In this document: positions 45,503 through 61,187 of the stretch, in pieces
Position numbering within the stretch: the first letter of the stretch is position 1
Layout of the letters: each line of letters starts with the position of its first letter
NCBI GenBank assembly: GCA_001799715.1
Contig: MGTZ01000028.1
Span: 10,954 to 74,953, forward strand
Direction: 5' to 3'
Length of the DNA: 64,000 nt
From: Elusimicrobia bacterium GWB2_63_16
GTDB taxonomy: Bacteria > Elusimicrobiota > Elusimicrobia > Elusimicrobiales > UBA9959
Notes under the pieces: model-generated
The model's input: the letters and a program-made list of their open reading frames with translations, nothing else
Database searches by the model: none
What the model was told of the DNA's origin: nothing
Position numbers and translations under genes: made by a program

Positions 45503-45594
45503 TACCGGCCGTGCGACCAAAATATTACAAAGAGATTTCGGCTTACGCCGGGCAGAATCCATAAATATGAAACAAAACAGTCACAAATGAAAAG

Positions 45595-46017: not shown

Positions 46018-47988
46018 ATGAACCGCGCCACCGCCACGAAGACCGCTCTGACCGCAGCCCTGCTGCTGGCGCCGCTTTGCGTACGGGCGGCCTTCGAGGA
46101 CCTGGGCTTCGGGGCCAGGGGCCCCGGCATGGGCGACGCCGTCACCGGCGTGGCCGACGACGTTTCCTCGGTCTACTACAACCCCGCCGGCCTCGGCGGC
46201 CTGGAGCGCCCGAAGGCGCTGGCCTCCCATTCCCTTTTCCACGGGGGGCTCAGCGACGGCTCCAGTCTGGGCCTCAGCGTGGCCGCGCTGGCCATGCCCA
46301 TAGGCAACGGCCGCCACGGCACCATCGGCGCGGCCTGGCAGGATTTCTCGCTCTCCGGCGTCTATTACGAGAAGACCGGCACCGTGGCCTGGGGCTACCG
46401 CTTCGACCGCGGCAGCCGCTACGAGAAACTTTCGGTGGGCGCGTCGCTGAAATACCTGTCGCACGGCTTCTCGCGCCTCGACGAGGCTTACAACGCCGTG
46501 ATGGAAAACCTCTCCCAGACCGGCGCCACGGACCCGGTGCTGGCCGGCGCCAACTCCCGCGGCGCCCTGGACGCCGATCTGGGCGCGCTGTACCGCCTCA
46601 CCAACCGGTGGACGCTCGGCGCGGCCATACTCAACGCCATGCAGGCCAACGTGGCTTTCAGCGAGTCCGACAAGGACCCCGTGCCCATGAAGGCCCGGCT
46701 GGGCGCCTCGTTCAAGAGCCTCTGGCTGCTCCTGTCCGCCGACGCCAGGCTGCAGAAGGGCCCCGACGGCAGCCTGGACAAGCAGTTCGTGGTGGCGGCC
46801 GAGAAGGTGTTCCCCAGCCTCGACCGCGGCGAGTTCGGCGTGCGGGGCTCGCTCGGCGCCGGCGACAGGGAATTCAAGCAGGCCACGCTGGGTCTCTCCT
46901 ACAAGATACAGCGCATACAGTTCGACTACGGCTTCATGCTGCCCATCGGAACGGTCAAAGAGACCTCCGGCAACCACCGCATGGCCCTGTCCTACCATTT
47001 CGGCACGCCTACCCAGTCCGAGATCGCCGAGAGCGAGCTGCTGGACCAGTACAAGCGCCTGCGCGAGACGCAGAACTACAAGGGCGCCCGCGATACCGCC
47101 AGCCTCAACGACCCCCGCCTGGCCGAAGTGAAAGAGCAGGTGCTGCGCGAGAATTATTACGCGGCCAACAAGCTGCTGGTGGCCAAGGCGGGCGAGCTGC
47201 TGCCCGATTCCTCCGTGGTCAACCTCACGCGCCGGCTCTCGGCCGTCGCGGCCTACTACCCGTCGCTGGCCCCCGAGCCGGGCCGCGGCCGCCAGCGCTG
47301 GGAGGACCTGCTCGCCAGCGGCGTAAGGGATTTCGTGAACGGCGCCGACAACCGCGCCATGAAGAAGCTGGCCTACGCCCAGAGCCTCAACCAGCAGGAC
47401 GGCGGGCTGGCCAACTTCCTGGACAAGGCCGGCGAGATCTCCCGCATTACGCCGGACAAGGTGCCGGCCGATTTCAGCCGCGGCTGGCCCGAGTACAAGC
47501 TGGACCAGTCCGACGAGTTCTACGCCAAGAAGCGCTATTCCGAGGCGCTGCGCAAGCTCGAGGAACTGCTGGACATAGAGCCGGCCTACCTGATGGCCCT
47601 TAAGAAGAGCGGCTCCTGCAACTATATGCTGGGCGCCTACTCCCGCGCCGCCCGCGACTGGGAGAAGGCCTCGCGCGCCGAGCCGGACCCGGTGGAGAAG
47701 GCCAAGCTGGCCAAGATGACCGCGGAGGCCCGCAAGAAGCAGGGCACGGAATCTTCCTGGGAGCCCGAGACCGGCTCCTACCGCGACGAAGCGGCGGGCG
47801 AGCCCGTGCTAACCGGCGCGGCGGCCAACGCCAGGGAGATCGAGAAGCTCTACCAGGCCGGGGCCGACGCCTACGCGAAGGGCGAATACGGCAAAGCGGC
47901 CGACGCCTTCCGCAAGATCCTGACGCTGGACCCGCAGAACACGCAGGCCAAGAAGGCCCTGGAGCGCATCATCAGGCTCTCCAGGTAA
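46018..47988 (+). CDS. Outer-membrane beta-barrel (PorV/PorQ/FadL-like) fused to a C-terminal TPR/helical domain
   Basis: Signal peptide. GARGPGMGDAVTGVADDVSSVYYNPAGLGG motif near the N-terminus, as in the PorV/PorQ/TraF/FadL-type barrels I recall. Alternating-strand pattern to about aa 330 (ends HRMALSYHF). Then TPR-like repeats to aa 656. Confidence 0.65.
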   Translation: MNRATATKTALTAALLLAPLCVRAAFEDLGFGARGPGMGDAVTGVADDVSSVYYNPAGLGGLERPKALASHSLFHGGLSDGSSLGLSVAALAMPIGNGRHGTIGAAWQDFSLSGVYYEKTGTVAWGYRFDRGSRYEKLSVGASLKYLSHGFSRLDEAYNAVMENLSQTGATDPVLAGANSRGALDADLGALYRLTNRWTLGAAILNAMQANVAFSESDKDPVPMKARLGASFKSLWLLLSADARLQKGPDGSLDKQFVVAAEKVFPSLDRGEFGVRGSLGAGDREFKQATLGLSYKIQRIQFDYGFMLPIGTVKETSGNHRMALSYHFGTPTQSEIAESELLDQYKRLRETQNYKGARDTASLNDPRLAEVKEQVLRENYYAANKLLVAKAGELLPDSSVVNLTRRLSAVAAYYPSLAPEPGRGRQRWEDLLASGVRDFVNGADNRAMKKLAYAQSLNQQDGGLANFLDKAGEISRITPDKVPADFSRGWPEYKLDQSDEFYAKKRYSEALRKLEELLDIEPAYLMALKKSGSCNYMLGAYSRAARDWEKASRAEPDPVEKAKLAKMTAEARKKQGTESSWEPETGSYRDEAAGEPVLTGAAANAREIEKLYQAGADAYAKGEYGKAADAFRKILTLDPQNTQAKKALERIIRLSR

Positions 47989-48015: not shown

Positions 48016-49347
48016 ATGAAATTATTCCACAAATTCAGCGCGGCCCTTATGGCCGCCGCTCTGGCGGCGGCCCTGCTGCTTTCCGGCATCTTCTTCAGCT
48101 TCCAGAACCGCACCGTGCGCCAGGCGCAGGAGGACCGCCTGCAGGCCCTGGCGCAGTCCGCGGCGGCCATGCTCGGCGAGGCAGAGCTGGCCGGCGACCC
48201 GCTGATGGCGGTGGATTACCTGTCCGGCTTGTGCTCGTCGCGGGCGGAGATAGCCGCCTGCCGCCTGGACATCGGCCGCGGCCTGCGGCCGGTGAAGACC
48301 CGCGGCAAGGCCCCGGCCCCGAAGGGGGACGTTCCCGTGCCGCGCGAGCTGCGCGGCGGCAAATATTCCGCGCAGCTGCTGTTCTCGTCGGCGGCGCTGG
48401 AGCGCGAGCGGCGCGAGGCCCTGGCCGGCGTCTGGCATGACCTGGCCGCCGCCTTCCTGGGCGCCATGGCCGCGGCGGCCCTGCTGGGCGTGCTGGTGGC
48501 CCGCCGGCTGACGCGGCGCCTGCGGCGGCTGGCCGAGGAGGCCGCGCTGGTGGGCGAGGGGCGCTTCGGCGCCAAGACCGACGCCTCCGGCTCCGATGAG
48601 GTGGCCGAGCTGGCCGGCGCTCTGAACGCGATGAGCGACCGCCTGCTCGAGCTGGAGACGATGAAGAAGAACTTCACCGCCTCCGTCACGCACGAGCTGC
48701 GCTCGCCGCTGGGGGTAATAGAGACCTACGCCGCGCTGCTCCTCAAGGAGAAGGAAAAATTCAGACCCGAGGACCTGGAGGTCTTCACGCGCATCAAGGA
48801 GAACGCCGGACGGCTGGCCAACTTCGTGACCGCCATGCTGGACCTGGCCAGGATCGAGCGGGGCCGGATGGACCTGCGCCCGGCCGCCGAGGACCCGCTG
48901 GCGCTCGCGCGAGATGCGGCCGACTTCCTCCGGCCTAAGGCGGAGGAGAAGGGGATAACCCTGGCGGTGGAAGGCGGCCCGCCCGGCGGCACCGCGCGGC
49001 TGGACCGCGAACTGGTCACGCATGTCCTCACCAATCTGCTCTCCAACGCCCTCAAGTTCACCCCGGCGGGCGGGAGCGTCACGCTGCGCGCCGCGCTTGC
49101 CGGCGGCAGGTGCCGGTTCGAAGTAGCCGACACCGGGCCCGGCCTGCGCGAAGGGGAAGCGCAAAAGCTGTTCGCCCCTTTCACGCAGGGCTCGGCGGCG
49201 CCCGGCCACGGCGGTACCGGCCTGGGCCTGGCCCTGGTGAAAGCCATCGCCGAGCTGCACGGCGGCAAGGCGGGCTGCGGCCCGGCCCCCGGCGGCGGCG
49301 CGGCGTTCTGGGTAGACCTGCCGGACGGCGGGGAAACCCCGAAATAA
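48016..49347 (+). CDS. Sensor histidine kinase (2 TM, HAMP, HisKA, HATPase_c)
   Basis: H-box FTASVTHELRSPLGVIE, N-box LTNLLSNALKF, and G-boxes DTGPGL / GGTGLGLA. Confidence 0.9.
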   Translation: MKLFHKFSAALMAAALAAALLLSGIFFSFQNRTVRQAQEDRLQALAQSAAAMLGEAELAGDPLMAVDYLSGLCSSRAEIAACRLDIGRGLRPVKTRGKAPAPKGDVPVPRELRGGKYSAQLLFSSAALERERREALAGVWHDLAAAFLGAMAAAALLGVLVARRLTRRLRRLAEEAALVGEGRFGAKTDASGSDEVAELAGALNAMSDRLLELETMKKNFTASVTHELRSPLGVIETYAALLLKEKEKFRPEDLEVFTRIKENAGRLANFVTAMLDLARIERGRMDLRPAAEDPLALARDAADFLRPKAEEKGITLAVEGGPPGGTARLDRELVTHVLTNLLSNALKFTPAGGSVTLRAALAGGRCRFEVADTGPGLREGEAQKLFAPFTQGSAAPGHGGTGLGLALVKAIAELHGGKAGCGPAPGGGAAFWVDLPDGGETPK

Positions 49348-49378: not shown

Positions 49379-50830
49379 GTGATTATGACCGCACCCCTAC
49401 GCCTTTTAGCCGTCCTGTCCCTCTGCCTGACCCTTAACGCGGGCGCGCAGGAGGCCGACCCGGCCCTTTCGCCCACCGCCCAGGGCTCCGAGATCTCGGC
49501 CCGCATGCAGGAGGACGTGTCGAAGCTGCTCGAGGAACTGCTCGGCCGCGGCCGGGCCCGCGCTTTCGTCACGGTGGAGGGGGAGATAGTGCTCAAGAGC
49601 AAGAGCGAGTCCGGCTCCCCGCCCGAAGAGAACCTGACCCTGCCCGGCTACTCGGCCGTCAACATCCTCGAGAAGACCGGCGAGTACCTCAAGCAGCAGC
49701 GCGCCGAGAGCCAGCGCACCAGCGAGTTCCGCGTCAAGCGGCTCGCGGTTTCACTCGTTTTCGACCGCGCCGTCCCCGACGCCCGCGTGAACGCCATCAA
49801 GCTGATGATCGCCGAAGTGCTGCGCGTCAGCGAGCAGCGCGGCGACACCATCATCACCGCCAAGGCCGAAATGCTGCCCTGGTGGAAGAGCGCCCTCGAG
49901 GCGCCCGAGATCCGCCCGGTGCTGGTGGCCTCCGCCTTCGGCGCGCTGGCGCTCGGCGTGTTGCTGATCTTCGGCTACATCCTGGCCTCCAAGCTGCTCA
50001 GCGGCTTCGTGGACTACGCCCGCATCAACGGCCCCGCCGCGGCCGCCGCCGGCCCCGCGGGCGGCGCCCTGGGCGGCCCCGGAGAAAGCGAGGGCGGCGA
50101 GGTGGGCGAGTTCGGCGAGATCATAGACGTGGAGTCCAAGGCCGCCTCGGGCGGCGCCATGCTGACGGCCGGCTCCGCCTTCGATTTCATCGAAAAGCTG
50201 CCTCCGTCGGACTCCGCCGAGCTTATCGCGGACCTGCCCGACGAGGACGCCGCCATCATCATAGCCAACCTGGCCGACCGCAGGCCCCATATTTCCTCCA
50301 AGGTGCTGCTGGCGCTGCCGCCCGCCAAGCGCCAGTCCGTCTCCGCCTTCCTGCTGGGCCTCAAGCAGGCCGAGCCCGAGCGCGTCTACGAGATCGAGAA
50401 CGACCTGCGCCTGAAGCTCGAGAAAAGCCTCAAGGGCGCCGAGAAGCTGGGCCGCCTGCTGTCGCTGGTGGACGAGGGCGCCCGCAGCGAGATCATGGAC
50501 AATCTCAACCGCGCCGACCCGAAGGCCTCCGAGGAACTGCGCAGCAGGATGGTGACGTTCGACGACCTGTGCCGCCTCGAAGAGAAGAACCTCAAGCCGC
50601 TCGTGGTGTCGCTGCCGTACGCCGACTGGGCCACCGCGCTGGCCGGCGCCGGCGAGGTGGCCACGGGCAACGTGACCCGGCTGCTGCCCGAGGACGTGCG
50701 CCTGGTGGTCAAGGACCTGATGATGACCCGCCCCGAGGACGAGCGGGTGATCGGCGCCAGGGCCAAGATAATTTCCGCCGCGATGGACCTCAACGCGAAG
50801 GGCCGCATAGTCCTGAAGGGGGGCGCGTGA
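49379..50830 (+). CDS. FliF-like (ring-building motifs plus TM) / FliG-like fusion protein
   Basis: Signal peptide. Periplasmic part has LEELLGRGRARAFVTVEGEI and RLAVSLVFDR...IAEVLRVSEQRGDTIIT (FliF/YscJ RBM-like). TM at aa ~179-207 and a Gly/Ala linker. aa ~265-483 is collinear with FliG N/M/C (ADPKASEELRSRMVTFDDLCRLEEKNLKPLV...ATALAGAG...KGRIVL). Start is the GTG at 49379 or the ATG at 49385. Confidence 0.7.
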   Translation: MIMTAPLRLLAVLSLCLTLNAGAQEADPALSPTAQGSEISARMQEDVSKLLEELLGRGRARAFVTVEGEIVLKSKSESGSPPEENLTLPGYSAVNILEKTGEYLKQQRAESQRTSEFRVKRLAVSLVFDRAVPDARVNAIKLMIAEVLRVSEQRGDTIITAKAEMLPWWKSALEAPEIRPVLVASAFGALALGVLLIFGYILASKLLSGFVDYARINGPAAAAAGPAGGALGGPGESEGGEVGEFGEIIDVESKAASGGAMLTAGSAFDFIEKLPPSDSAELIADLPDEDAAIIIANLADRRPHISSKVLLALPPAKRQSVSAFLLGLKQAEPERVYEIENDLRLKLEKSLKGAEKLGRLLSLVDEGARSEIMDNLNRADPKASEELRSRMVTFDDLCRLEEKNLKPLVVSLPYADWATALAGAGEVATGNVTRLLPEDVRLVVKDLMMTRPEDERVIGARAKIISAAMDLNAKGRIVLKGGA

Positions 50831-52812
50831 GCCGCCCCGCCGACGCCTTCGACTCCGACCTGGACTACCTGTGGCGCGCCGTGGGCGAGGCCCAGGACGC
50901 CTCGTCCCGCTCCGAGGCAGAACGCGCCGAGGCCCGCAAAAGCCTCGCGCTCTATGCCTCCAGGGCCGCGCTGCTTGAGAAACAACTGGCCGAGAGCCAC
51001 GCCCGCGAGAGGCATTTGAAGGCCGAAGCCGAGAAGCTGCGCTCCGCCGCCGGGCTCGGCTCGGAACGGCTGGCCGCCGCCGCCGCGGCCGCGCGCGAAG
51101 CCGAAGAGCTGCGCAGCGCCCTGCTGCGCAAGGAGGGTGAGCTCGCCGCCGCCGCGCCCGAACTCGAGGACCTGCGCGCCAGATCGAAAAATCTGCGGGA
51201 GGCCCTGGCCGCCCGCGACGAGGCTATCGCCGCGTTCAGGGGCAAGCTCACGGCCATAATGGAACTGCCCGAGATAGACCGGTTGCTGCGCGCCGACGAG
51301 GCCGCCACCGGCAAGCCCCGCCCGCTTTACGAGGAACTGCTGGAACGCCTGGAAGCCTCCAGGCGCGCCGCCGCCGGCTCGGCCGCCGCGCTGGCCGCCG
51401 CCGCCGAAGGGGAGGCCGCAGCCCGCCTGACCCTGGAAGCCGCCGAAAAGGAACTGGCCGAACAGCGCGACGCGCTGCGGCAGAAGAATTTGGATCTGGA
51501 AGGGCTGAAGAAGGCTGTCAGCGAGGCCGCCTATCAGGCGAGGATCTCCGGGGAGGAGAAGCAGGCGCTGGAAAGCCGCGCCGCCGCCCTCAAGGCCGCC
51601 ATAGCAGAGAAAGAAGCCGCCCTGGCCGCGGCCGCCGACGAGTCCGCCTCGCTGCGCGCCCGCCTGGACGCCTCCCGGGAGGAGGCCGAGCGCCTGCGCC
51701 AGTCAGCCGACGAGCATTCGGTAAAGGCGCAGGAGCAGCGCAGCAATTTTTCGGGAGCGGTGAGCCAGGTCTTCGACCTGCAGAACCGCGCCGCCGCGCT
51801 CAAAACGGCGCTGGGCGAGGCGCAGGAGCGCAGCGCGGCCGCCGCCTCCATGCTCAAGGCCCGCGAGGCCGACCTGGAAAAGGTCAACGGCCTGCTGCGC
51901 GACGCCAAGGGCGCCCTGACGCAGGAGAAGGAAGTTTCCCGCCGGGAAATGGTGAAGATAAAGGCGCTGGAGGCCGAGATAGACGCCCTCAAGACCAAGC
52001 TGGGCGCCGCCGCCGATTATTCGGCGCGGCTGCTCAAGGCCGTGGAGGAGCGCGACCTGGCCCTGGGCGCCGGCAAGGCCGCGCAGGCGCAGGACGGCAA
52101 GAAGCTGGCCGACCTCGAGATCGAGAACGAGGACCTGCGCCGAAAGAACATAAAATTTACCGGCCTCCTCAAGCGCGAACAGGCCGATTTCTCGGCCAGG
52201 ATGCTGGTCTCGCTGGAGCGCTCCGCCAGGGAGCTCAAGAATTTCAACCTGCGCATCCCCGCCGCCGAGCGCAAGGCGCTCGAGCCCGCGCTGAAGACGC
52301 TTTTCGCCTCCGTGAACCTGCTCAAGGGCTGGCAGGAGTACCTGGACCCCGAGACCCCCGACATGGAAGACACCGACCTCGCCTCCCTGGTTTCCGTCGA
52401 GACCGGCAAGTGGGAACGCGCCTTCAAGCAGCGCAAGATCTCCATCACCGCCGCCATCCTCAACCCGCGGCTGCGCGCGCGGCTGGCGCCCGAGCGCGTG
52501 AAGATGCTGTTCTACAACCTCATCAAGAACGCCTACGAGCGCCTGCAGCAGGGCGGCAGCCTGCGCGTGACCATGAAGAGTTCCGACGACGCGCGCCTGG
52601 CCGTCTTCACCTTCGAGGACACCGGCCCCGGCTTCGCCCGCGAGGCGCTGGACAAGCTTTTCGCCCCGTTCAACACCACCGACAAGGGCAAGGCCGGCAT
52701 AGGCCTGGCCGTGGCGCGGCGCATAGCCGAGAAGCACGGCGGCACGCTGGAAGTCACCAACAAGAAAGAACGCGGGGCCATAGTGGAAGTGCGCCTGCCC
52801 CTGGGCGTATAA
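50827..52812 (+). CDS. Cytoplasmic long coiled-coil protein with C-terminal HATPase_c domain (kinase-like, H-box apparently degenerate)
   Basis: Track ORF 49882-52812 trimmed to the GTG at 50827 (GTGA overlap with the upstream stop). About 450 aa of Ala/Glu/Leu/Arg heptad-like sequence. C-terminus has N-box FYNLIKNAYERL and G-boxes EDTGPGF / GKAGIGLAVA. The H-box position reads VSLERSARELKN. Confidence 0.65.
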   Translation: MSRPADAFDSDLDYLWRAVGEAQDASSRSEAERAEARKSLALYASRAALLEKQLAESHARERHLKAEAEKLRSAAGLGSERLAAAAAAAREAEELRSALLRKEGELAAAAPELEDLRARSKNLREALAARDEAIAAFRGKLTAIMELPEIDRLLRADEAATGKPRPLYEELLERLEASRRAAAGSAAALAAAAEGEAAARLTLEAAEKELAEQRDALRQKNLDLEGLKKAVSEAAYQARISGEEKQALESRAAALKAAIAEKEAALAAAADESASLRARLDASREEAERLRQSADEHSVKAQEQRSNFSGAVSQVFDLQNRAAALKTALGEAQERSAAAASMLKAREADLEKVNGLLRDAKGALTQEKEVSRREMVKIKALEAEIDALKTKLGAAADYSARLLKAVEERDLALGAGKAAQAQDGKKLADLEIENEDLRRKNIKFTGLLKREQADFSARMLVSLERSARELKNFNLRIPAAERKALEPALKTLFASVNLLKGWQEYLDPETPDMEDTDLASLVSVETGKWERAFKQRKISITAAILNPRLRARLAPERVKMLFYNLIKNAYERLQQGGSLRVTMKSSDDARLAVFTFEDTGPGFAREALDKLFAPFNTTDKGKAGIGLAVARRIAEKHGGTLEVTNKKERGAIVEVRLPLGV

Positions 52813-52860: not shown

Positions 52861-53541
52861 TTACAGCCTGAAAATGTAGCCCAGCCTGAAGATAGTCCCT
52901 ATCTTGCTCCCGAAGCGCCCCAGCTTGCGGCGCAGGGCCTCTATGCGCTTGTCCACGGCGCGGGGGCCGGCTTCGGCCGCGTCCTTCCACACCTGTTCCA
53001 GCAGGACGTAGCGCGAGACCACGCGCCCCTGGTTGCGGAGGAAATAGAGAAGGATGTCGAATTCCAGGGCCGTGAGCCTCACCTTTTTGCCGCCAACGCT
53101 GGCAGCGCGGGCCTCCGGCGAGATGAGCAGGTCGCCGAACTCGTACTCGGCGGGTTTCTCCGGCCGCGGCCGGCCGGCGGGGCCGCGCCCCAGCAGGTTC
53201 AGCAGCCGCGCCCGGAACAGCAGCGGGTCGGGGGGGAAGGCGAAATACTCGTCGGCGCCGCTATCGAAAGAGGCGGCGGCCGCGGCCGGGGAATAGGGGG
53301 CGGCGCCGGTCAGCACCAGCAGCAGGCCGGCGGTCCCGGGGGACCCGCGCAGCGCGGCCACCAGGTCTCCGCCGCCCATGTCCGGCAGCGCGGCGTCTAT
53401 CACGGCCAGCCCGGCGGCCGGGGGGGCTTTCAGAAAAGCGGCGGCGGTGGGGTAGAACTTCAGCGCGAAGCCCGCCAGCGCGGCGCGGTAAAAGGCCCGG
53501 GCGGCGGGATCGGAGGTAAGACAGAAGGCGGCAGGCTTCAT
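52861..53541 (-). CDS. OmpR-type winged-helix regulator with atypical receiver domain
   Basis: C-terminal LTALEFDILLYFLRNQGRVVSRYVLLEQVW...VDKRIEALRRKL trans_reg_C pattern. The receiver keeps the D in VIDAALPDM, lacks the N-terminal DD pair, and has YFAFP where Y-x-x-KP is expected. Confidence 0.8.
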   Translation of the reverse strand: MKPAAFCLTSDPAARAFYRAALAGFALKFYPTAAAFLKAPPAAGLAVIDAALPDMGGGDLVAALRGSPGTAGLLLVLTGAAPYSPAAAAASFDSGADEYFAFPPDPLLFRARLLNLLGRGPAGRPRPEKPAEYEFGDLLISPEARAASVGGKKVRLTALEFDILLYFLRNQGRVVSRYVLLEQVWKDAAEAGPRAVDKRIEALRRKLGRFGSKIGTIFRLGYIFRL

Positions 53542-53915
53542 GCGGGCAGCACGGCGGCTTTAATGCGGCGCAGGAGCTCGTCGGGGTCGAACGGCTTGAG
53601 CACGTAGCCGGCCGCGCCGAGCGCGAGGCCCTGCGAGACCATGTCCAGCTCGGAACGCACGGTAAAGAAAATGATGGGGGTTTTGGCCAGGGCCGGGACC
53701 TTGCGGATACGGCGGGCGGCCTCGAACCCGCTGACGTCGGGCAGACCCACGTCGAGCAGGATCAGGTCGGGGAGTTCCCTGGCGGCCAGCTCCACCCCCG
53801 GCAGGGCGGCGGCGGCGGTGAGCACGGCGCAGCCGGCCTTGGCCGCTATGCGCGAGGCGATGCGCAGGTAATCGGGTTCGTCGTCCACCACCAGGATCAC
53901 GGGGCGGGGGGTCAT
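53538..53915 (-). CDS. Single-domain response regulator (CheY-like)
   Basis: ILVVDDEPD, LILLDVGLPDVSG, FFTV, and YVLKPF. Confidence 0.9.
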   Translation of the reverse strand: MTPRPVILVVDDEPDYLRIASRIAAKAGCAVLTAAAALPGVELAARELPDLILLDVGLPDVSGFEAARRIRKVPALAKTPIIFFTVRSELDMVSQGLALGAAGYVLKPFDPDELLRRIKAAVLPA

Positions 53916-54298
53916 TTCTTCCTGGTCAGGTCCTCTACTTTCTTCTGCAGGTAGGAGAGTTCCACGGTCTTGCTCATGAACTCGCGGCAGTTGGACTCCT
54001 GCCGGAACAGCTCGCTCATGTTCTTGTCGAAGAACGTGCCGGTGATGACCAGCACCGGGATGGAGCGGGTCTCGTCGTCGGCCTGCAGGCCGCGGATGAC
54101 CTCTATGCCGCCGATGTCGGGCATCATCACGTCGCAGAGGATGATGTCCGGGCGTATGGCCTTGGCCTTCAGCAGGCCCTCGCGCCCGTTCTCTGCGATC
54201 TCCACCGTGAAACCGAGGTCGGTGAAATAATCGCAGACCATAGTCCGGAATTCCACGTTGTCGTCAACGATAAGCATCAGTCCCATATTCTGTCCCAT
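53912..54298 (-). CDS. Single-domain response regulator (CheY-like)
   Basis: LIVDDN, IILCDVMMPDIGG, and VLVITG. Confidence 0.9.
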   Translation of the reverse strand: MGQNMGLMLIVDDNVEFRTMVCDYFTDLGFTVEIAENGREGLLKAKAIRPDIILCDVMMPDIGGIEVIRGLQADDETRSIPVLVITGTFFDKNMSELFRQESNCREFMSKTVELSYLQKKVEDLTRKK

Positions 54299-54330
54299 GC
54301 GGTCTAGTATATTTCAAATGCGCCCGGTTT

Positions 54331-56451
54331 TCAAGAGGGCGAGGGGATGGGCGGGGGCGGGGCCGCCAGCGACTTGGCCACGGTGAAGATGAACTTGCTG
54401 CCTTTGCCCACCTCGGACTCCACCCAGATGTCGCCCTTGTGCAGCTGCACCGTCATCTGGCACATGGCCAGGCCCAGGCCGAAGCCCTGGCTCTTGTGCT
54501 CCTCCATCTGGCCGTATTTCTCGAAGATCTCCTTGCGCTTGGCCTCCGGAATGCCGGGGCCGGTGTCCTGCACGGCGAAGAACACCTGCTTATCGTCCTC
54601 CCAGGCGGAAAGCGTGATGGTGCCGCCGCCGGGGGTGAACTTGAGCGAGTTGCCCATCAGGTTGGTGATGACGCGCTCGAGCAGGGTCGGGTCGGCGGTG
54701 AAACTGATCTTCGCCGGCGGGGGGACCACCACGAGCTTGATGTTCTTGGGCCCGGCGACCGGCTCGTGGTTGTCCTTGATGCGCGCGATCACGGTCTCGG
54801 CGTCCACCGTGTCGAGCTGCAGCGTCATCGTGCCGCGCTCGAGCTTGGTGACGTTGAGGATGTCGTCGATCATGCCGCGCAGGCGGCGCGACGAATAGAG
54901 CATGCTCTGGAGATACTTGTCGGTGGCGGGGGAGGGGCCGATCTTCTTCATCAGCAGCTCCGTATAGCCCTGCAGGGTCGACAGCGGGGCGCGCATGTCG
55001 TGCGTGATCATGTGGAAGAAATCTTCCTTGGCCTTTTCGATCTCCTTCTCGCTCGTGATATCGCGGATGATGATGACGCGGCCCGGGCGCTTGAGCGTGG
55101 CCAGCAGGAACTGGTTGGAGATGACGCGGAAGCTCTTGGTCACCGTGGAAGTCTCGTTGACGAGCGGGGCGTCCAACTCGGTCTTAAGGTACTTCTCCTT
55201 GTGCGCCAGCATCTCGGTCAGGGCGTTGAAGAAAGCTTCGTTCTTGACGGAGCGGGGGACGGCCACCTCGGGGGAGATCTTGGGGATGCCGAGGAGCTTG
55301 AGCGCGGTGTTGTTGCAGTAGATCAGCGAGCCGCGGTCGTCTATCAGCAGCACGCCGTCGGAGATGGTGTCGATGAGCGCCTGGGCCTTGCCCTTCTCCT
55401 CCACGATCTGGTTGAGCTGGAAGGCGCGGTAGGCCTGCAGCTCCAGCATCAGTCGGTTGAGCACGCCCACGAGCGACTTGATCTCGGGCCAGCCCTCGGC
55501 GGGGATCACATTGTCCAGGTGCTGGGTGCGCAGAAAGCCTTTGACGCCGCCCACCATGTTGTTGATGGGGCGGATGATGCGGTTGGAGACCAGGAACACC
55601 ACGACCATGGCGATGGCGAAAATGACGACGGCCAGCGCCGCGAACACGATGATGGATTTGCGCTGCTTGCCGTAGAGTTCCTCTTCGGACTGCACCGAGA
55701 CGGCGGCCCAGTCCAGGTCCTCGATGGCGGCGTAGGCGCCGGCGAACTCCTCGCCGGAGAAAAGGAACTGGGACAGCGTGCCGGTGCGGCCGCCGCTGCG
55801 GAAGACCTTGCGCAGGTCCTCCGGCTTGAAGTCCAGGCCTTTCATGTCCTGGCAGGGGAGGGGCTTGCCCTGGCGGTCGGAGATGAAGACGCGGCCGCTG
55901 GCGCCGGTCTTCTGGGAATTGATCTTGCCCAGCAGTTTGTCCATCGAGAAATGGAACACGACCACGCGGCCGTCCACCAGCGGGTAGGCCAGCGGGAAGT
56001 AGGTCTGCGCGCGCAGGCAGATGGGGTCCCCGGTGGAGACCACGCCGCTGTCGGCGGCCTTGGCCACCAGCGCGGCCTGGAAGGAGGCGAGGGACTTCTT
56101 TTCGCGCACGGTCTCGCTCTGCAGGAAGAACAGCTCCTTCCCGTCGGCGGCGACCAGCGCCAGCGACATGATATCGGAATTGATGCGCGCCGCCTGCTGT
56201 ATCACCTGCGTCTCGTCCACCTTCCTGCCGCGCAGGGGGTTCTCGAACTCGTAGAGAAAGGCGAGGTTGCGGTTGGTGTTCTTGAGCCACTCGTCCACGT
56301 TGGCGGCCGACAGCCGGGACAGGCCCTTGTGCAGTTCGAAATAGCTGGCCACCGAGGAGTTGTACTGATAGACGTTCCAGCCGACGGCCAGCACGAGCGG
56401 GAGCACCGCTATGCCCAGCAGGATCAGCAGGAACCTCGTGGTCAGTTTCAT
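54331..56451 (-). CDS. Sensor histidine kinase (periplasmic Cache-like domain, HAMP, PAS, HisKA, HATPase_c)
   Basis: Two TM helices flank a ~240-aa periplasmic domain. H-box FFHMITHDMRAPLSTLQGY. NLMGNSLKF, QDTGPGI, and GFGLGLA motifs. Confidence 0.9.
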   Translation of the reverse strand: MKLTTRFLLILLGIAVLPLVLAVGWNVYQYNSSVASYFELHKGLSRLSAANVDEWLKNTNRNLAFLYEFENPLRGRKVDETQVIQQAARINSDIMSLALVAADGKELFFLQSETVREKKSLASFQAALVAKAADSGVVSTGDPICLRAQTYFPLAYPLVDGRVVVFHFSMDKLLGKINSQKTGASGRVFISDRQGKPLPCQDMKGLDFKPEDLRKVFRSGGRTGTLSQFLFSGEEFAGAYAAIEDLDWAAVSVQSEEELYGKQRKSIIVFAALAVVIFAIAMVVVFLVSNRIIRPINNMVGGVKGFLRTQHLDNVIPAEGWPEIKSLVGVLNRLMLELQAYRAFQLNQIVEEKGKAQALIDTISDGVLLIDDRGSLIYCNNTALKLLGIPKISPEVAVPRSVKNEAFFNALTEMLAHKEKYLKTELDAPLVNETSTVTKSFRVISNQFLLATLKRPGRVIIIRDITSEKEIEKAKEDFFHMITHDMRAPLSTLQGYTELLMKKIGPSPATDKYLQSMLYSSRRLRGMIDDILNVTKLERGTMTLQLDTVDAETVIARIKDNHEPVAGPKNIKLVVVPPPAKISFTADPTLLERVITNLMGNSLKFTPGGGTITLSAWEDDKQVFFAVQDTGPGIPEAKRKEIFEKYGQMEEHKSQGFGLGLAMCQMTVQLHKGDIWVESEVGKGSKFIFTVAKSLAAPPPPIPSPS

Positions 56452-56457
56452 ACGTAC

Positions 56458-57084
56458 TTAGATCTCGTGCCTTATGATGTTGATCTCTATGCGCCGGTTC
56501 TTGGAGCGCCCTTCGGGGGACTCGTTGGTCTGTATCGGCTTGAACTCGCCGTAACCCACGGCGGAGAGCTTCTCGGGGGCCACGCCTTCCTTAATGAAGA
56601 ACTGCAGCACCGAGAAGGCGCGGGCGCTGGAGAGTTCCCAGTTGGAGCGGAAGCGGGTGCCGCGGCCCAGCGGGCGGTTGTCGGTGTGGCCCTCTATCTG
56701 GATGGGGTTGGGCAGGTCCTGGAAAACGGCGGTCAGGCGGCGCAGGTGGGGGTAGGAGGAGGGCTTGAGCACATCGCTGCCCGGCGTGAACAGGATAGGG
56801 TCGGAGAAATTGATGCTGATCTTGTTGGCCGAGATCTCCACCTGGGCTATCTGCTGTATGCCGTGCTTGGAGAACAGGGTGCTGGCCACCTCGGTGTCCT
56901 TGCCGAAGGTCTCCTCGATGGCCTTGGCGGAGAACTGGGAGGTGATGTTCTTGGAGCTGTAGAAAGCGAAGAGGATCATGAAGAAGATCATCAGGTAGCT
57001 CATCATGTCGCCGTAGGTGATGGCCCACAGCGCGCCCCGGTTGAGCTCGTTCTCCAGTTCGTCCTCGCGTTCGTAGAAGCGCAT
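56458..57084 (-). CDS. motB: MotB-type stator subunit (OmpA-like peptidoglycan-binding domain)
   Basis: WAITYGDMMSYLMIFFMILF with the conserved channel Asp. C-terminal IEGHTDNRP...NWELSSARA...NRRIEI OmpA-like motif. Confidence 0.85.
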   Translation of the reverse strand: MRFYEREDELENELNRGALWAITYGDMMSYLMIFFMILFAFYSSKNITSQFSAKAIEETFGKDTEVASTLFSKHGIQQIAQVEISANKISINFSDPILFTPGSDVLKPSSYPHLRRLTAVFQDLPNPIQIEGHTDNRPLGRGTRFRSNWELSSARAFSVLQFFIKEGVAPEKLSAVGYGEFKPIQTNESPEGRSKNRRIEINIIRHEI

Positions 57085-57088
57085 AGTT

Positions 57089-57862
57089 TTATTTACCCTT
57101 GGCCGCGGAGCCGCCGTCGAGCGTCAGGTAGCCGCGCAGGTGCATGTCTATGAGGTGGGGGGTCTTGCCGCTCATGATATCGATCACGCCCTCGAGGATG
57201 AGCTGCAGCACCAGCGTCTCCTCCATGGCGCGCAGGCGGATCTTGTTGGCCACCGGCACGCAGAACATGTTGGAGAAGCCGATACCGAACAGGGCCGAAG
57301 TGATGGCCACGGCCATGGAGCGGCCGATGGCGGTGGGGTCGGAGATGTTGGAGAGCGTCTGGATGATGCCGAACAGGGTGCCGATCAGGCCGAACATGGG
57401 GGAGAGCACGCCGGCGGTGCGGTACAGGTTGGAGTCCTCGGAGATGTCCAGGCGGCGCAGGCGGATCTCCTCTTCCAGTATGGCGCGGGTCTCGCGCGAC
57501 TCCGCGCTGACCATGGCCACGCCCACCGCGCGCTTCAGGAAGCCGTTGGCGAAGGAGGCGTCCACGCTGGTCAGGGCCATGATGCCGCCCTGCTTCTGCG
57601 CGGTCTCGGCCATGCCCACGAGCATGCGCACCGCCTCGTGCACGGAGGGCATCTTGGGGGAGGAGAAAATGGCCGCGAGGGCCTTGAGGCCGGTCACGAA
57701 GCGCCTGTAGGAGGTGTTGATGATGGTGGCGGCCAGGGTGCCGCCCAGCACTATCACGATGCCGTGGGAGTTGAAGATGTTGCCGGCCACGCCCGAGGAA
57801 TAGGCGCCCCAGGCCACCACGGCCCCGCCCAGCACGAAACCCACGATCGTCATCATATCCAT
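57089..57862 (-). CDS. motA: MotA-type stator subunit (MotA/TolQ/ExbB proton-channel family)
   Basis: 257 aa, 4 TM. Collinear by eye with MotA/PomA (MDMMTIVGFVLGGAVV..., GVLSPMFGLIGTLFGII, AITSALFGIGFSNMFCVPVANKI, ILEGVIDIMSGKTP). GGAG SD. Confidence 0.85.
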   Translation of the reverse strand: MDMMTIVGFVLGGAVVAWGAYSSGVAGNIFNSHGIVIVLGGTLAATIINTSYRRFVTGLKALAAIFSSPKMPSVHEAVRMLVGMAETAQKQGGIMALTSVDASFANGFLKRAVGVAMVSAESRETRAILEEEIRLRRLDISEDSNLYRTAGVLSPMFGLIGTLFGIIQTLSNISDPTAIGRSMAVAITSALFGIGFSNMFCVPVANKIRLRAMEETLVLQLILEGVIDIMSGKTPHLIDMHLRGYLTLDGGSAAKGK

Positions 57863-58049
57863 AGTTGAGTCTCCAAAAACGGTTATCCTTACGGAGTAAT
57901 TGTACAGGAACCATGTTACCGAATTTTTACATATATATAATATAAAATTGCGCGGTGATTTTAGATTTTGATACCATTTATACCTGAAACGGCCGGACCG
58001 GCCCCGGAAAGGGCCAGGCCGCGGATTTTCGCCGAAACAGGAGCCAACT
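57863..58049. promoter_or_regulatory. AT-rich divergent promoter region (motA operon / acyl-CoA dehydrogenase operon)
   Basis: Markedly AT-rich, with tatataatataaaatt on the plus strand and TACAAT on the minus strand (57899-57904). Both flanking genes have SDs. Confidence 0.45.
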
Positions 58050-59204
58050 ATGGATTACTTACTCACCGAATCCCAGATCATGATACGGGACCTGGCGCGC
58101 AAGATCGCCCAGGAGAAGATAAAGCCCGTGGCGGCCCAGTACGATGAGAGCGAAGAATTCGCCTGGCCGATCATGAAGGTCCTGGCCGAGAGCGACCTGT
58201 TCGGCGTCTACCTGCCCGAGCAGTACGGCGGCCTGGGCGGCGGCATCCTGGATATGTGCCTGGTGACCGAGGAACTCTCCCGCGCCTGCGGCGGCATAGC
58301 CCTGGGCTACGCCGGCACCGGCCTGGGCACCCTGCCCATCCTGCTGCACGGCTCCGAGGAGCAGAAGAAAAAGTATCTGCCCGACATCGCCAGCGGCAAA
58401 CGGCTGGCCGCTTTCTGCATCACCGAGGCGGAAGCCGGTTCCGACGCGGGCTCCATAAAGACCACCGCCCGCAAAGAGGGGAACAAGTACATCCTCAACG
58501 GCACCAAGCAATGGATCACCAACGCCGGAGAGGCGGAGATCTACACCGTGATAGCCCTGACCGACAAGGCCAAGGGCGTGCGCGGCGCCAGCGCCTTTAT
58601 CGTGGAGAAGGGCACCAAGGGCATGGAGTTCGGCAAGAAAGAGAAGAAGATGGGCATCCGCGCCAGCGCCACCCGCGAGGTCATCTTCACCGACTGCGAA
58701 GTCCCGGCCGAGAACCTGATCTCCCGCGAGGGCATGGGCTTCATCGTGGCCATGAAGACCCTCGACACCTCCCGCCCCGGCGTGGCCGCCCAGGCCGTCG
58801 GTATCGCCCAGGGCGCCCTCGACTGCGCCCTCGACTATTCCCGCACCCGCGTGCAGTTCGGCGCGCCCATCTCCAGCTTCCAGGCGATACAGCATATGCT
58901 GGCCGACATGGGCACCCAGGTGGAGGCCGCCCGCGCGCTGGCCTATTCGGTCGCCCGCCTGGTGGACTCAGGCGCCAAGAGCGTGTCCAAGGAAAGCGCC
59001 ATGGCCAAGCTCTTCGCCAGCGACGTGGCGATGAAAGTCGCCGTCGACGCGGTGCAGATCATGGGCGGCTACGGCTATATGCGCGACTACCCGGCGGAGA
59101 AGTTCATGCGCGACGCCAAGATCACGCAGATCTACGAAGGCACCAACCAGATCCAGCGCAACGTCATCGCCGCCAACATGATCAAGGAAACCCTCAAGAA
59201 ATAG
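58050..59204 (+). CDS. Short-chain acyl-CoA dehydrogenase (Bcd-like)
   Basis: 384 aa. TEAEAGSD, WITNAG, and IYEGTNQIQR motifs. AGGAG SD. Confidence 0.95.
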   Translation: MDYLLTESQIMIRDLARKIAQEKIKPVAAQYDESEEFAWPIMKVLAESDLFGVYLPEQYGGLGGGILDMCLVTEELSRACGGIALGYAGTGLGTLPILLHGSEEQKKKYLPDIASGKRLAAFCITEAEAGSDAGSIKTTARKEGNKYILNGTKQWITNAGEAEIYTVIALTDKAKGVRGASAFIVEKGTKGMEFGKKEKKMGIRASATREVIFTDCEVPAENLISREGMGFIVAMKTLDTSRPGVAAQAVGIAQGALDCALDYSRTRVQFGAPISSFQAIQHMLADMGTQVEAARALAYSVARLVDSGAKSVSKESAMAKLFASDVAMKVAVDAVQIMGGYGYMRDYPAEKFMRDAKITQIYEGTNQIQRNVIAANMIKETLKK

Positions 59205-59205
59205 C

Positions 59206-59988
59206 ATGAACATAATCGTCTGCATCAAGCAGGTCCCCAACACCACCGACGTACGCATAGACCCGGTCACGAATACGCTGATACGCGACGGGGTGGAGAG
59301 CGTGATCAACCCGTTCGACGCCTACGCCATAGAAGAGGCCGTGCGCCTCAAGGAGCGCTGCGGCGGCAAGGTGACGGCCGTCACCATGGGGCCGCCCCAG
59401 GCGGAGACCGCCCTCAAGGAGGCCATAGGCCTCGGCTGCGACGAGGCCGTGCTGGTCAGCGACCGCAAGTTCGCCGGCTCCGACACCTGGGCCACCTCTT
59501 ACACCCTGGCCTGCGCCATAGAGAAGCTGGAAGCCTACGACGTGATAATCTGCGGCAAGCAGGCCTCCGACGGCGATACCGCCCAGGTGGGCCCCGGCAT
59601 TTCCACGCACCTCGACATTCCGCAGGTCACCTACGTCAAGAAGATCGTGGAGATCAACGATAAGAGCGCCCGGGTGGAGCGCATGACCGAGGAGGGTTAC
59701 GACGTGGTGGAAGTGCCGCTGCCCTGCCTCTTCACCGTGGTCAAGGAGATCAACACGCCCCGCATGCCGTCGCTCAAGGGCATGATGCGCGCCAAGTCCG
59801 CCAAGATAGCCAAATGGACCGCCGCCGACCTGGACGCCGATCCGGCCGCCCTCGGCCTGGACGGCTCGCCCACGCGCGTGGTGAAGATCTTCACCCCCGA
59901 GGCCCGCAAGGGCGGGGAGATGATCTCCGGCTCCACCGACGAGGTGGCCAAAGAGCTCGTAGAGCTGCTCAAAGGGGAGGTGGTGTAA
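59206..59988 (+). CDS. etfB: Electron transfer flavoprotein beta subunit
   Basis: MNIIVCIKQVPN N-terminus and ICGKQASDGDTAQVGP motif. Confidence 0.95.
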   Translation: MNIIVCIKQVPNTTDVRIDPVTNTLIRDGVESVINPFDAYAIEEAVRLKERCGGKVTAVTMGPPQAETALKEAIGLGCDEAVLVSDRKFAGSDTWATSYTLACAIEKLEAYDVIICGKQASDGDTAQVGPGISTHLDIPQVTYVKKIVEINDKSARVERMTEEGYDVVEVPLPCLFTVVKEINTPRMPSLKGMMRAKSAKIAKWTAADLDADPAALGLDGSPTRVVKIFTPEARKGGEMISGSTDEVAKELVELLKGEVV

Positions 59989-61187
59989 TGGCCTCCATCA
60001 AGATCCTGCTGGATAAATGCACCGGCTGCACCCTGTGCGTAAAGACCTGCCCCTTCGGCGCCATCCACATGGCCGACCGCAAGGCCGTCATAGACATGGC
60101 CAAGTGCACCCTCTGCGGCTCCTGCGTGGCCGCCTGCAAATTCTCGGCGATAGAGCTGGAGAAGTCCGGAGGCCCCAGGAAGGACCTGTCCGGCTATAAG
60201 GACGTCTGGGTATTCTGCGAGCAGAAGAAGGGCGTCATCCAGAGCATCTCTTTCGAACTGCTGGGCGAAGGCCGCAAGCTGGCCGACAAACTGGGCGTGA
60301 AACTGTGCGCCGTGCTGCTCGGCCACGACATGGAGACCGCCGCCGGCAAGCTGGGCGAGCGCGGCGCCGACAAGGTCTATCTGGTGGACCACCCGGCCCT
60401 GGCGGCCTACCAGGACGATCCCTATACCGCCGTGCTGGTTAAGCTCGTCGAGGAATACAAACCGGAGGCGCTGCTCTGCGGCGCCACCACCATAGGCCGC
60501 AGCCTCATCTCGCGCGTCGCCATAAAGACCAGCGCCGGCCTGACGGCCGACTGCACCGGCCTCGACGTGGACACCAAGGAGCGGCTGCTGCTGCAGACCC
60601 GCCCCGCCTTCGGCGGCAATATCATGGCCACCATCATAGCGCCCAACCACAGGCCGCAGATGGCCACCGTGCGCCACAAGGTCATGCAGGAGGCCCCGGT
60701 GAAGCCGGGCCGCGGCGTGGAGATAGTCAGCAATGTCTATCCCGAGGAGACCTTCGCCTCCAGAAGCAAGCTGCTCGAAGTGGTGGAAGAAATAGCCAAT
60801 ACGGTCAATATCTCCGAGGCCGACATCATAGTGGCCGGCGGCCGCGGCATGGGCGGCAAGGAGAATTTCGCGCGGCTCGAGGAGCTGGCGAAGGTGCTGG
60901 GCGGCGCCGTGGGCGCCAGCCGCAGCGCGGTGGACGCCGACTGGATCGGCTACTCGCACCAGGTGGGCCAGACCGGCAAGACCGTGGTGCCCAAGCTGTA
61001 CTTCGCCTGCGGCATCTCCGGCCAGATCCAGCACCTGATCGGCATGCAGTCGTCCAAGGTCATCGTGGCCATAAACAAGGACCCCGACGCGCCCATCTTC
61101 AAGGTGGCCACCTACGGCATCGTGGGCGACGTCAATGAACTGGTGCCCGCGCTCACCCGCGAATTCAAGCGCGCGCTGAACAAATAA
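59988..61187 (+). CDS. etfA: Electron transfer flavoprotein alpha subunit with N-terminal 2x[4Fe-4S] ferredoxin domain
   Basis: Trimmed to [10 protein letters not shown] at 59988. [12 protein letters not shown] and [13 protein letters not shown]-terminal [18 protein letters not shown]-binding motif. Confidence 0.9.

Follow-up and report, generated by a model that had tools for sequence, protein, structure and literature searches.

Why should the genes of a flagellar-type stator stand amongst two-component signalling genes rather than amongst the genes for the rest of a flagellum? The question is raised by a stretch of 64,000 nucleotides of Elusimicrobia bacterium GWB2_63_16 (contig MGTZ01000028.1, positions 10,954 to 74,953), hereafter the window, in which motA and motB are followed on the minus strand by genes for a membrane kinase of 706 aa (HK706), two small receivers (RR1 and RR2) and an OmpR-type regulator. 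The first-pass annotation, made from the letters of the DNA, had given this order and proposed that the stator is coupled to a signalling module of its own; all six genes are indeed minus-strand open reading frames (ORFs) whose Pfam domains agree with it (Table 1). Computational comparison reveals a flagellar-type stator and a fusion of FliF (an RBM3-like part) to FliG (the middle and C-terminal parts, MC), hereafter FliFG; the linkage between the two is constant, as is their linkage with kinases and receivers and with a PorV/PorP-like barrel and its C-terminal domain (CTD) proteins. Sequence and predicted structure together suggest that the six genes encode the stator and its control, one half of an ion-driven machine that is conserved in the Elusimicrobiota, is not a flagellum and has built-in control and an outer-membrane output; to this reading we would assign a probability of roughly 0.55.

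Conservation and reshuffling of the cluster

According to GTDB the source belongs to the Elusimicrobiota, order Elusimicrobiales, with UBA9959 as both family and genus, and the closest MotA and FliFG proteins are those of Elusimicrobia metagenome-assembled genomes (MAGs) of UBA9959, such as HGW-Elusimicrobia-3 and GWC2_64_44; the UBA9959 MAGs are of groundwater origin, with a genome size of ~3 Mb. A search with the FliFG protein against one genome per species gave 45 Elusimicrobia loci, in the closest of which FliFG is 97% identical. In the loci L046-L077 (Desulfobulbus and others) the match was confined to the C-terminal part of FliG at 21-28% identity, and these were treated as ordinary FliG and set aside.

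The six genes prove to be one half of a cluster of 13, the other half being HK443, FliFG, ccHK, TPR656, CHU133, a 562-aa protein and big1073, and the order is kept in ~45 species-level Elusimicrobiales genomes in which the identity of FliFG falls to 46%; linkage of the block to the FliF-FliG fusion gene, which had been put forward as a check on the proposed coupling, is found in these genomes. HK443, FliFG and ccHK run in one direction and meet, on the opposite strand, the OmpR-type gene, RR2, RR1, HK706, motB and motA, the last being the first of its strand to be read. The four genes upstream are equally constant where the contig allows, with big1073 and the 562-aa gene on the minus strand and, before HK443, CHU133 and TPR656 on the plus strand. 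The order of the genes goes beyond chance: motB is the next gene in 32 of the 33 related loci with a contig that extends past HK706, and motA is then present in all 30 in which the contig continues past motB.

Outside this group relatives of MotA that are 36-45% identical lie beside a FliG_C protein of 500-530 aa, MotB, a TPR protein and giant surface proteins. Two such loci, L079 and L080, which were assigned to the Elusimicrobiota via the names of near-identical proteins, share an operon of FliFG, MotA and MotB, preceded in L079 by a giant protein and a barrel/TPR protein. The order is barrel/TPR protein, histidine kinase (HK), MotA, FliFG, coiled coil and MotB in L082, and giant protein, TPR protein, a fusion of a kinase to FliFG (HK::FliFG, 842 aa), a 426-aa protein, MotA and MotB in L085. 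In L086 CTD proteins, a TPR protein, HK, FliFG, ccHK and a PAS kinase are convergent to a response regulator (RR), an OmpR-type protein, MotA and MotB, whilst in L089 FliFG, ccHK, an orthologue of RR1, MotA and MotB are convergent to a Cache kinase, an OmpR-type protein and RR2; L087 has the FliFG half only.

Linkage that persists through the reshuffling of genes is a classical sign of functional coupling. Since the linkage survives rearrangement, and since genes of the cluster are also found fused, comparison of these sequences gives strong evidence that the products of the cluster work together. The reshuffled linkage includes the signalling genes, and signalling would therefore seem to be tied to the motor; the proposal that the stator is linked to its own signalling module is borne out by the return of the same genes in new orders in the deeper lineages, HK::FliFG fusions included.

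The stator

By profile score and by predicted fold MotA and MotB are flagellar-type, PomA-like stator subunits. MotA matches Pfam MotA_ExbB (E 1.3e-18); flagellar stator families rank first for it in NCBIfam at 125-158 bits ("flagellar motor protein", PomA 158) as against 20 bits for TolQ, and its sequence matches in the PDB are exclusively flagellar MotA/PomA (E 1e-37), with an alignment that is colinear from end to end. The AlphaFold model (predicted local distance difference test score, pLDDT, 85.5) has four transmembrane (TM) helices with a large cytoplasmic torque domain between the second and the third, and its 23 best Foldseek matches are all flagellar stator chains, with TM values normalised to query length of 0.70-0.88 as against ~0.5 for ExbB and ~0.35 for TolQ. 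Both subunits miss the curated NCBIfam cut-offs, MotA with 158 bits at best for 237 and MotB, the top families of which are MotD/MotB/MotS, with 154 for 283.

These profile scores and folds rule out a Tol, Exb or Agl identity for MotA, and the separate Agl-, Tol-, Exb- or Zor-like clade that had been entertained for the pair does not stand. A Zorya identity was ruled out by PADLOC, in which MotA has no ZorA match and MotB has generic ZorB matches only (27-82 bits), and no ZorC/D-like genes are present alongside motAB.

Several residues of known stators are recognisable. Across 45 homologues P155 of MotA (in TM3) is invariant and P203 (in TM4) is at least 90% conserved, both aligning with prolines of PomA, and R148 (PomA R135) and D101 (PomA E99) are invariant or nearly so. 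The equivalents of the charged PomA residues R88, K89, E96, E97 and E99 are Q89, K90, T98, S99 and D101, amongst which D101 is invariant and K90 at least 70% conserved. MotB is the most conserved protein of the cluster and matches both MotB_plug (38.3 bits, E 1e-9) and OmpA (73.3 bits, E 2e-20) above cut-off, so that the OmpA-like domain seen in the first reading is confirmed, as is the channel aspartate, D26 of YGDMMSYLMIFF. This residue lies within YGDMM, where G and D do not vary across the family and Y reaches a conservation of at least 90%; the motif NxGALWAxTYGDxMSxLMIFF recurs in the deep lineages.

The putative rotor

In gene neighbourhood FliFG is the constant companion of this stator. 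The database copy of the protein has 481 aa and begins two residues after the GTG start used here, and the true start is probably the ATG at 49385. In the AlphaFold model an N-terminal signal/anchor helix leads into an alpha/beta domain that lies in the periplasm (residues 32-162); after it come a long TM helix (179-217), a disordered linker and a helical domain (269-473). The helical domain is the middle and C-terminal part of FliG by PDB sequence match (E 1e-12) and by Foldseek (E 8e-9), with Pfam scores of 52.5 bits for FliG_C and 24.2 bits, slightly below the cut-off of 25, for FliG_M. For the periplasmic domain Foldseek gives a match to FliF RBM3/S-ring with E ~1e-3 and TM ~0.5, normalised to the target, and weaker ones to PrgK, EscJ and SpoIIIAG; the score for YscJ_FliF_C is 20.1 bits against a cut-off of 23.8 in FliFG, and 33-38 bits in its relatives.

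There is no match to FliG_N in FliFG, the FliG part of which begins at about residue 265, past the TM helix and the disordered linker, and RBM1 and RBM2 of FliF are absent from it, the model having a single alpha/beta domain of ~130 aa. The FliM-binding EHPQ(R) motif of FliG aligns to E289-D290-A-A (EDAA), with E289 and D290 at least 90% conserved, and the hinge MFVFED of FliG is MVTFDD (MFxF-like). In the torque helix the conserved charges are D439, R441, K445 and D446, and acidic residues stand where E. coli has R281 and R297. These features are what would be expected of a ring-forming rotor protein that still meets the stator and no longer meets FliM.

The family that FliFG defines is large. 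A word-indexed profile search with its distant members added almost no new ones, whereas an exhaustive profile search enlarged it to 62 cluster representatives with E <1e-30 and 991 with E <1e-10, and most of the top 150 matches span the protein from the periplasmic domain through the FliG end. Two types of fusion each occur in several 50%-identity clusters. In HK::FliFG (P0349, P0351, P0382, P0391, P0397) HisKA-HATPase_c, FliF-like and FliG-like parts form single proteins of 788-847 aa, and in FliFG::TPR (P0323, P0325, P0358, P0411, P0334) proteins of 629-705 aa have cytoplasmic TPR repeats after FliG_C.

A coiled-coil protein comes directly after FliFG in every lineage in which the next gene has been characterised (L082, L086-L089). 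In the window it is ccHK, and in some other lineages a plain coiled-coil protein replaces it; in L084 and L085 unannotated genes for 426-428 aa stand at this position after HK::FliFG. None of the ccHK orthologues of the window, L086, L087 and L089 has a phospho-acceptor His at the H-box, and all keep the N, G1 and G2 ATP-binding motifs, by which ccHK is a predicted pseudo-kinase or ATPase.

Kinases and receivers

HK706 has an intact H-box, ITHDMRAPL, with dCache_1 (48.8 bits, cut-off 45), PAS, HisKA and HATPase_c, and has orthologues in L086, L087 and L089. Three response regulators had been counted behind it. The count stands for RR1, with its DD, D56, T and K phospho-acceptor residues, and for RR2, which also has all of them; it fails for the OmpR-type protein, which leaves Pfam Response_reg unmatched, lacks the acidic pair and the conserved Lys, and is poorly conserved in its degenerate receiver region. 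Nor are the two small receivers, called CheY-like in the first reading, CheY orthologues: RR1 scores 45 bits with the NCBIfam CheY model, the cut-off of which is 189, and that model is not among the 25 best NCBIfam families listed for RR2, so that by CheY-model scores both are generic stand-alone receivers. FliM and FliN, the normal targets of CheY, are moreover absent from this cluster, and EHPQ has become EDAA.

RR1 equals MotB in its conservation within the group (mean column identity 0.835), and RR2 and the OmpR-type protein are less conserved. As the RR1 orthologue of L089 sits between the FliFG partner gene (ccHK) and motA, inside the FliFG-ccHK-MotAB operon, RR1 is the best candidate for a motor-binding receiver; of the two receivers that the first reading had put forward for direct motor control at the FliG-like protein, gene order would favour RR1 alone. 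The RR2 and OmpR-type genes of L089 stay with the Cache kinase, and an RR2 orthologue adjoins the OmpR-type gene in both L086 and L089; HK706 may thus act through RR2 and the OmpR-type protein as a sensory and transcriptional arm. The nearest precedent for a receiver on a motor is PorX, whose phosphorylated CheY-like domain binds the GldL/PorL motor.

Outer-membrane and surface proteins

Beyond what the first-pass annotation had recognised, the cluster takes in PorV/PorP-like and CTD-bearing outer-membrane proteins. The barrel protein TPR656 matches NCBIfam PorV/PorQ with E 2e-14 and 53.9 bits, under the cut-off of 90; the only PDB match of its barrel-family profile is PorV (6h3i, E 6e-13), and its relatives match Pfam PorP_SprF at 8e-17. 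Its TPR domain is expected on the periplasmic side. Such a gene adjoins FliFG in L079, L082 and L085-L088 and is 2 genes away in L080.

Both CHU133 and the 562-aa protein end in the TPNGDGKND-type motif of type-B sorting domains, and the NCBIfam type B sorting-domain model gives 22.7 and 28.2 bits for the two CTD-bearing proteins against a cut-off of 35. In the Bacteroidota neighbouring genes encode the PorP-like SprF and the type-B-CTD adhesin SprB that it anchors. The place of big1073 in the cluster is conserved; it has no match to a curated family, and its KAGDTMTGQLTL motifs are of a kind seen in fibre proteins.

The FliFG/MotAB core of L079, L080 and L085 has giant proteins (2330-2885 aa) next to it, which show NHL or FlgD_ig-type matches and may be the cargo or adhesin counterpart of big1073 and the 562-aa protein. 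L079 and L080 also have a lipoprotein-like gene, 43-47% identical between them, directly after motB in the former and after the giant-protein and TPR genes in the latter, for which the window cluster has no counterpart.

Layout and transcription of the six-gene block

The short gaps reported in the first reading are confirmed from the sequence, with 4 nt between motA and motB, 6 nt between motB and HK706 and 32 nt between HK706 and RR1, as are the ATGA overlaps that join RR1 to RR2 and RR2 to the OmpR-type gene; all six ORFs are of coding type, with a GC content at third codon positions of 0.87-0.95. The terminator, a strong one, which lies 21 nt past the stop codon of the OmpR-type gene between the two convergent gene sets, is the stem-loop GGGCGGGA-GCTT-TCCCGCCC followed by TTTTTCTTT. 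The FliG-like gene had been placed across it; the gene found directly there is ccHK, and FliFG is one gene further.

One operon had been proposed, starting from the AT-rich region at 57.9 kb. The start is supported by a conserved element that is near-identical across relatives in 17 aligned intergenic regions and has TACAAT 37 nt ahead of the ATG of motA; the single operon is not, owing to an internal TTGAAA-17-TATACT site that is kept base for base in 12 of 19 related loci whilst its flanks vary. Given the conservation of this site the receiver genes probably have a second, internal promoter besides the upstream one, and the block is probably two nested transcription units rather than a single operon. 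The upstream element contains GCGCAATTTTATATTATATATATG and sits between motA and a divergent acyl-CoA dehydrogenase gene, and may act for the two divergent promoters at once or be bound by a regulator, for instance the OmpR-type protein. A sigma-70 scan calls no promoter in the AT-rich region upstream of motA, although the region is strongly conserved, and a sigma-54 promoter was rejected there by eye, the GG-to-GC spacing not fitting.

Beyond motA the cluster is adjoined by genes for an acyl-CoA dehydrogenase, EtfB and an EtfA that bears a 2x[4Fe-4S] ferredoxin domain at its N-terminus, which are syntenic in most relatives, and further off in the window there is a 679-aa protein with TPR repeats and a SpoIID-type domain. 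The remaining genes of the window are housekeeping ones (acetate kinase, Lon, ClpP, trigger factor, complex I, riboflavin synthesis, Bcd/EtfAB and PGI).

Table 1. Features of the window cluster and of related loci, in order of position within each locus
Feature	Locus	Position	Strand	Description
679-aa protein	window	12428-14467		TPR repeats, SpoIID-type domain
big1073	window	40637-43858	minus	1073 aa; secreted fibrous repeat protein, KAGDTMTGQLTL repeats, Cys-rich C-terminal domain
562-aa protein	window	43874-45562	minus	CHU_C domain at end, 31.6 bits (cut-off 27); orthologues in L086, L087
CHU133	window	45609-46010	plus	133 aa; small, secreted, type-B-CTD-like domain (VTPNNDKKND…); Pfam CHU_C 32.1 bits (cut-off 27)
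TPR656	window	46018-47988	plus	656 aa; signal peptide, PorV/PorP-like barrel (~25-330), C-terminal TPR domain
HK443	window	48016-49347	plus	TM-HAMP-HisKA-HATPase_c kinase, intact H-box; fused to FliFG in other lineages
FliFG	window	49379-50830	plus	FliF RBM3-like and FliG middle/C-terminal fusion; Pfam FliG_C, FliG_M, weak YscJ_FliF_C
ccHK	window	50827-52812	plus	long coiled coil, then HATPase_c; no HisKA; start overlaps FliFG stop (GTGA)
Intrinsic terminator	window	52839-52820	minus	8-bp stem, 7 G-C pairs
OmpR-type regulator	window	52861-53541	minus	226 aa; winged-helix DNA-binding domain after degenerate receiver; Pfam Trans_reg_C only
RR2	window	53538-53915	minus	125 aa; canonical stand-alone receiver; Pfam Response_reg alone
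RR1	window	53912-54298	minus	128 aa; stand-alone receiver; Pfam Response_reg alone
Internal promoter-like site	window	54334-54306	minus	TTGAAA-17 nt-TATACT, 10/12 consensus positions; overlaps HK706 stop codon
HK706	window	54331-56451	minus	706 aa; membrane kinase, TM-dCache-TM-PAS-HisKA-HATPase_c
motB	window	56458-57084	minus	208 aa; stator B subunit; Pfam MotB_plug and OmpA
motA	window	57089-57862	minus	257 aa; flagellar-type (PomA-like) stator A subunit; Pfam MotA_ExbB
AT-rich element upstream of motA	window	57897-57980	minus	~85 bp, …ATGGTATCAAAA…GCGCAATTTTATATTATATATATGTAAAAATTCGGTAACATG…TACAAT; from alignment of 17 intergenic regions
Acyl-CoA dehydrogenase, EtfB, EtfA genes	window	58050-61187		adjoin the cluster
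Giant protein	L079	1-6806		beside FliFG/MotAB core
Lipoprotein-like gene	L079	11513-12625		after motB
Giant protein	L080	5679-12671		beside FliFG/MotAB core
Lipoprotein-like gene	L080	14304-14918		after giant-protein and TPR genes
HK::FliFG	L084	8821-11349		kinase-FliFG fusion gene
Giant protein	L085	1-7672		beside FliFG/MotAB core
HK::FliFG	L085	10001-12529		kinase-FliFG fusion gene

Comparison with flagella and other ion-driven machines

Apart from motAB and FliFG no flagellar gene was found in the cluster or among the ORFs checked elsewhere in the 64-kb window (~50 of the ~55 coding-type ORFs beyond the cluster), which agrees with the absence of flagellar genes alongside motAB seen in the first-pass annotation; in particular there are none in the cluster or window for the export gate, rod, hook, filament, FliM or FliN. 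Core genes of type III secretion and of type IX secretion (T9SS) are likewise missing from the ORFs checked in the window, and SprA/Sov, GldK/N and PorU have no gene in the cluster or window. GldL/GldM (PorL/PorM), GldK/N and SprA/Sov were also not seen among the genes examined in the window and the related loci, no genome-wide search having been made. According to a preprint complete flagellar gene sets occur in few Elusimicrobiota, and most of the free-living members are without flagellar structural genes yet carry motAB and fliG homologues, the role of which the preprint calls enigmatic; the composition of FliFG fits this statement. Motility is not discussed in the genome survey of Méheust et al., and no description of this MotAB-FliFG cluster was found in the literature searched.

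With the flagellar motor the cluster shares the family and fold of the stator, the channel Asp, the plug and the OmpA-like anchor, as well as a FliG MC with a charged torque helix and MFxF-type hinge and an RBM3-like domain. It differs in being without the type III export apparatus, rod, hook, filament, FliM/FliN, FliG_N and RBM1/2, in having FliF and FliG in one polypeptide with key charge pairs and EHPQ changed, and in that its genes are embedded among those for two-component and outer-membrane proteins. A natural fusion of FliF to FliG with a shortened periplasmic region is known from the Chlamydiaceae, which are without flagella (Bergeron 2016, PMC4768692); this protein of ~330 aa comprises an RBM2-like part, an RBM-like segment and only the middle region of FliG, and has been discussed as an injectisome partner (PMC4768692). 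The likeness to FliFG, compared by description and not by sequence, lies in the idea of the fusion, in the shortened periplasmic region and, probably, in a host without flagella, whereas no MotAB partner or kinase genes are described for the chlamydial protein.

The T9SS/gliding machinery of the Bacteroidota (GldLM/PorLM, PorX-PorY, SprB-SprF) resembles the machine proposed below in having an inner-membrane ion motor of 5:2 type that is coupled to PorV/PorP-family barrels holding CTD adhesins, and an attached two-component system, a CheY-like domain of which binds the GldLM/PorLM motor. Here, however, MotAB and a FliG-type rotor take the place of GldLM, the barrel is fused to TPR, the phylum is another one, and the GldK/N ring and SprA translocon are not seen. 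The Agl-Glt system of Myxococcus and Tol/Exb resemble the cluster as MotAB-family proton channels that do non-flagellar work in the envelope, but subunits of the TolQR/ExbBD type have no large torque domain and no FliG-like partner. Zorya has in ZorAB a MotAB-like pair outside the flagellum, but a ZorA match and ZorC/D-like genes are missing here and the similarity of MotB to ZorB is generic. For the flagellum, the chlamydial fusion and the T9SS/gliding machinery alike, defining features are missing from the cluster. Where MotAB relatives are put to other uses (Tol, Ton, Agl, GldLM, Zorya) their partners are different ones, and to our knowledge FliG-type rotors driven by flagellar-type stators occur only within flagella.

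A possible machine and its alternatives

In the machine that we propose FliFG would form a ring in the inner membrane, which peptidoglycan-anchored MotA5B2 units would turn or load via its FliG-like domain. The work would pass through the periplasm to the TPR domain of TPR656, the PorV/PorP-like outer-membrane barrel, which would hold the type-B-CTD surface proteins and the fibrous adhesin, the outcome being that surface proteins are moved, secreted or anchored, much as by gliding machinery. HK706 would signal to RR2 and the OmpR-type regulator and so set transcription, with the OmpR-type protein regulating the cluster; RR1 may bind the motor itself, and HK443 and the His-less ccHK may sit at the rotor.

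Several points weigh against this reading, all support for which is drawn from sequence, predicted structure and gene neighbourhood. The FliF-like domain falls under the Pfam threshold, its fold match is modest and the model of FliFG, with a pLDDT of 71.6, is low in places. The canonical charge pairs between stator and rotor are, as far as alignment can tell, only partly kept, with R88 of PomA changed to Q, E96 to T and E97 to S, and with R281 and R297 of FliG acidic. The absence of flagellar genes is taken from the general statement of one preprint and from the 64-kb window. There is no RR1 orthologue in L086, and L087 has no motAB within 10 kb. L027 (16900-17260; UBA11697, contig DMXM01000034.1) keeps FliFG, ccHK, the kinase and the three regulators and has no motAB at the site; there the kinase gene directly adjoins the conserved upstream element, of which the half nearest to motA is missing, and this looks like a clean deletion or relocation of motAB. 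Finally the outer-membrane output is the weakest step, as no T9SS translocon or GldK/L/M/N gene is seen.

Which part of the proposed machine is its purpose may be read in other ways. The stator and rotor might energise a T9SS-like export or anchoring of the neighbouring CTD proteins, as Ton/Tol or PorLM do, with no movement of the cell. The PorV/PorP-like barrel of the cluster, the CHU_C type-B-CTD-like domains of two neighbouring proteins and the giant FlgD_ig/NHL proteins beside the core in L079, L080 and L085 all speak for this, but SprA/Sov, GldK/N and PorU have no gene in the cluster or window; the CTD matches are weak, at 18.6-28.2 bits against NCBIfam cut-offs of 23 and 35, the exception being CHU133 with a type-A score of 23.6 that barely reaches 23, and the T9SS is regarded, in the part of the literature drawn on here, as restricted to the Bacteroidota and their relatives. 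We think this unlikely, whilst holding it the strongest of the alternatives. It is rather unlikely, too, that the motor is primarily a sensor, in which the FliFG ring and MotAB would report load, surface contact or proton motive force to the kinases, as flagellar stators do, and the output would be receiver phosphorylation and transcription. FliFG has a kinase gene as its neighbour, and in at least six 50%-identity clusters (five scanned and P0326/P0425) the two are fused; the kinase-like ccHK is translationally coupled to FliFG, and for a single motor the signalling load is heavy, with three kinases and three regulators, of which one is a transcription factor. In the deepest versions, L079 and L080, FliFG, MotAB, the PorV-TPR protein and a giant surface protein have neither a kinase nor a receiver nearby, and signalling therefore looks to have been added to a mechanical core; the torque helix and the cytoplasmic domain of MotA are, besides, conserved as in working motors.

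That these are ordinary stator genes of a flagellated bacterium, with the other flagellar genes elsewhere and the kinase and receiver genes as chance neighbours, would seem very improbable. MotA and MotB are of flagellar type in sequence and fold, and a few Elusimicrobiota do carry complete flagellar sets according to the preprint. Most free-living members, however, are without flagellar structural genes (the same preprint), no flagellar NCBIfam model reaches its cut-off, and the sole FliG-like gene found is fused to a truncated FliF and is without FliG_N, RBM1/2 and EHPQ; the linkage of motAB to the fusion and to the same signalling genes, too, survives several rearrangements.

Implications for the Elusimicrobiota

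There is a real chance that the cluster is a new machine in its own right rather than a variant of the MotAB-family ion-driven machines. A fuller picture, possible but on balance doubtful, is of an undescribed rotary machine that spans the envelope, in which a MotAB-driven FliF(RBM3)-FliG ring would hand its work via a TPR domain in the periplasm to PorV/PorP-like carriers of CTD adhesins for gliding or the transport of surface proteins, steered by kinases and a motor-binding receiver and with no type III export or axial structure; it might be a reduced offshoot of the flagellar motor, or a still extant relative of the rotor-stator module that went into the making of the flagellum.

If the proposed machine is real, a conserved stator and rotor pair that works with neither export apparatus nor rod nor filament would put the torque-generating core to a new use, and with one rotor protein and two stator proteins it would be the simplest natural form of that core. 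It would bear on the old question in the origin of the flagellum of whether a rotor and a stator can be coupled independently of the type III secretion core, on how receivers and kinases could act directly on a FliG-type rotor without the FliM/FliN switch, and on whether motors other than GldLM can power T9SS-like carriers in the outer membrane. The work also defines a large unannotated protein family of FliF-FliG fusions, some joined to kinases or TPR domains, and offers a candidate function for the motAB and fliG genes that have been called enigmatic in free-living Elusimicrobiota.

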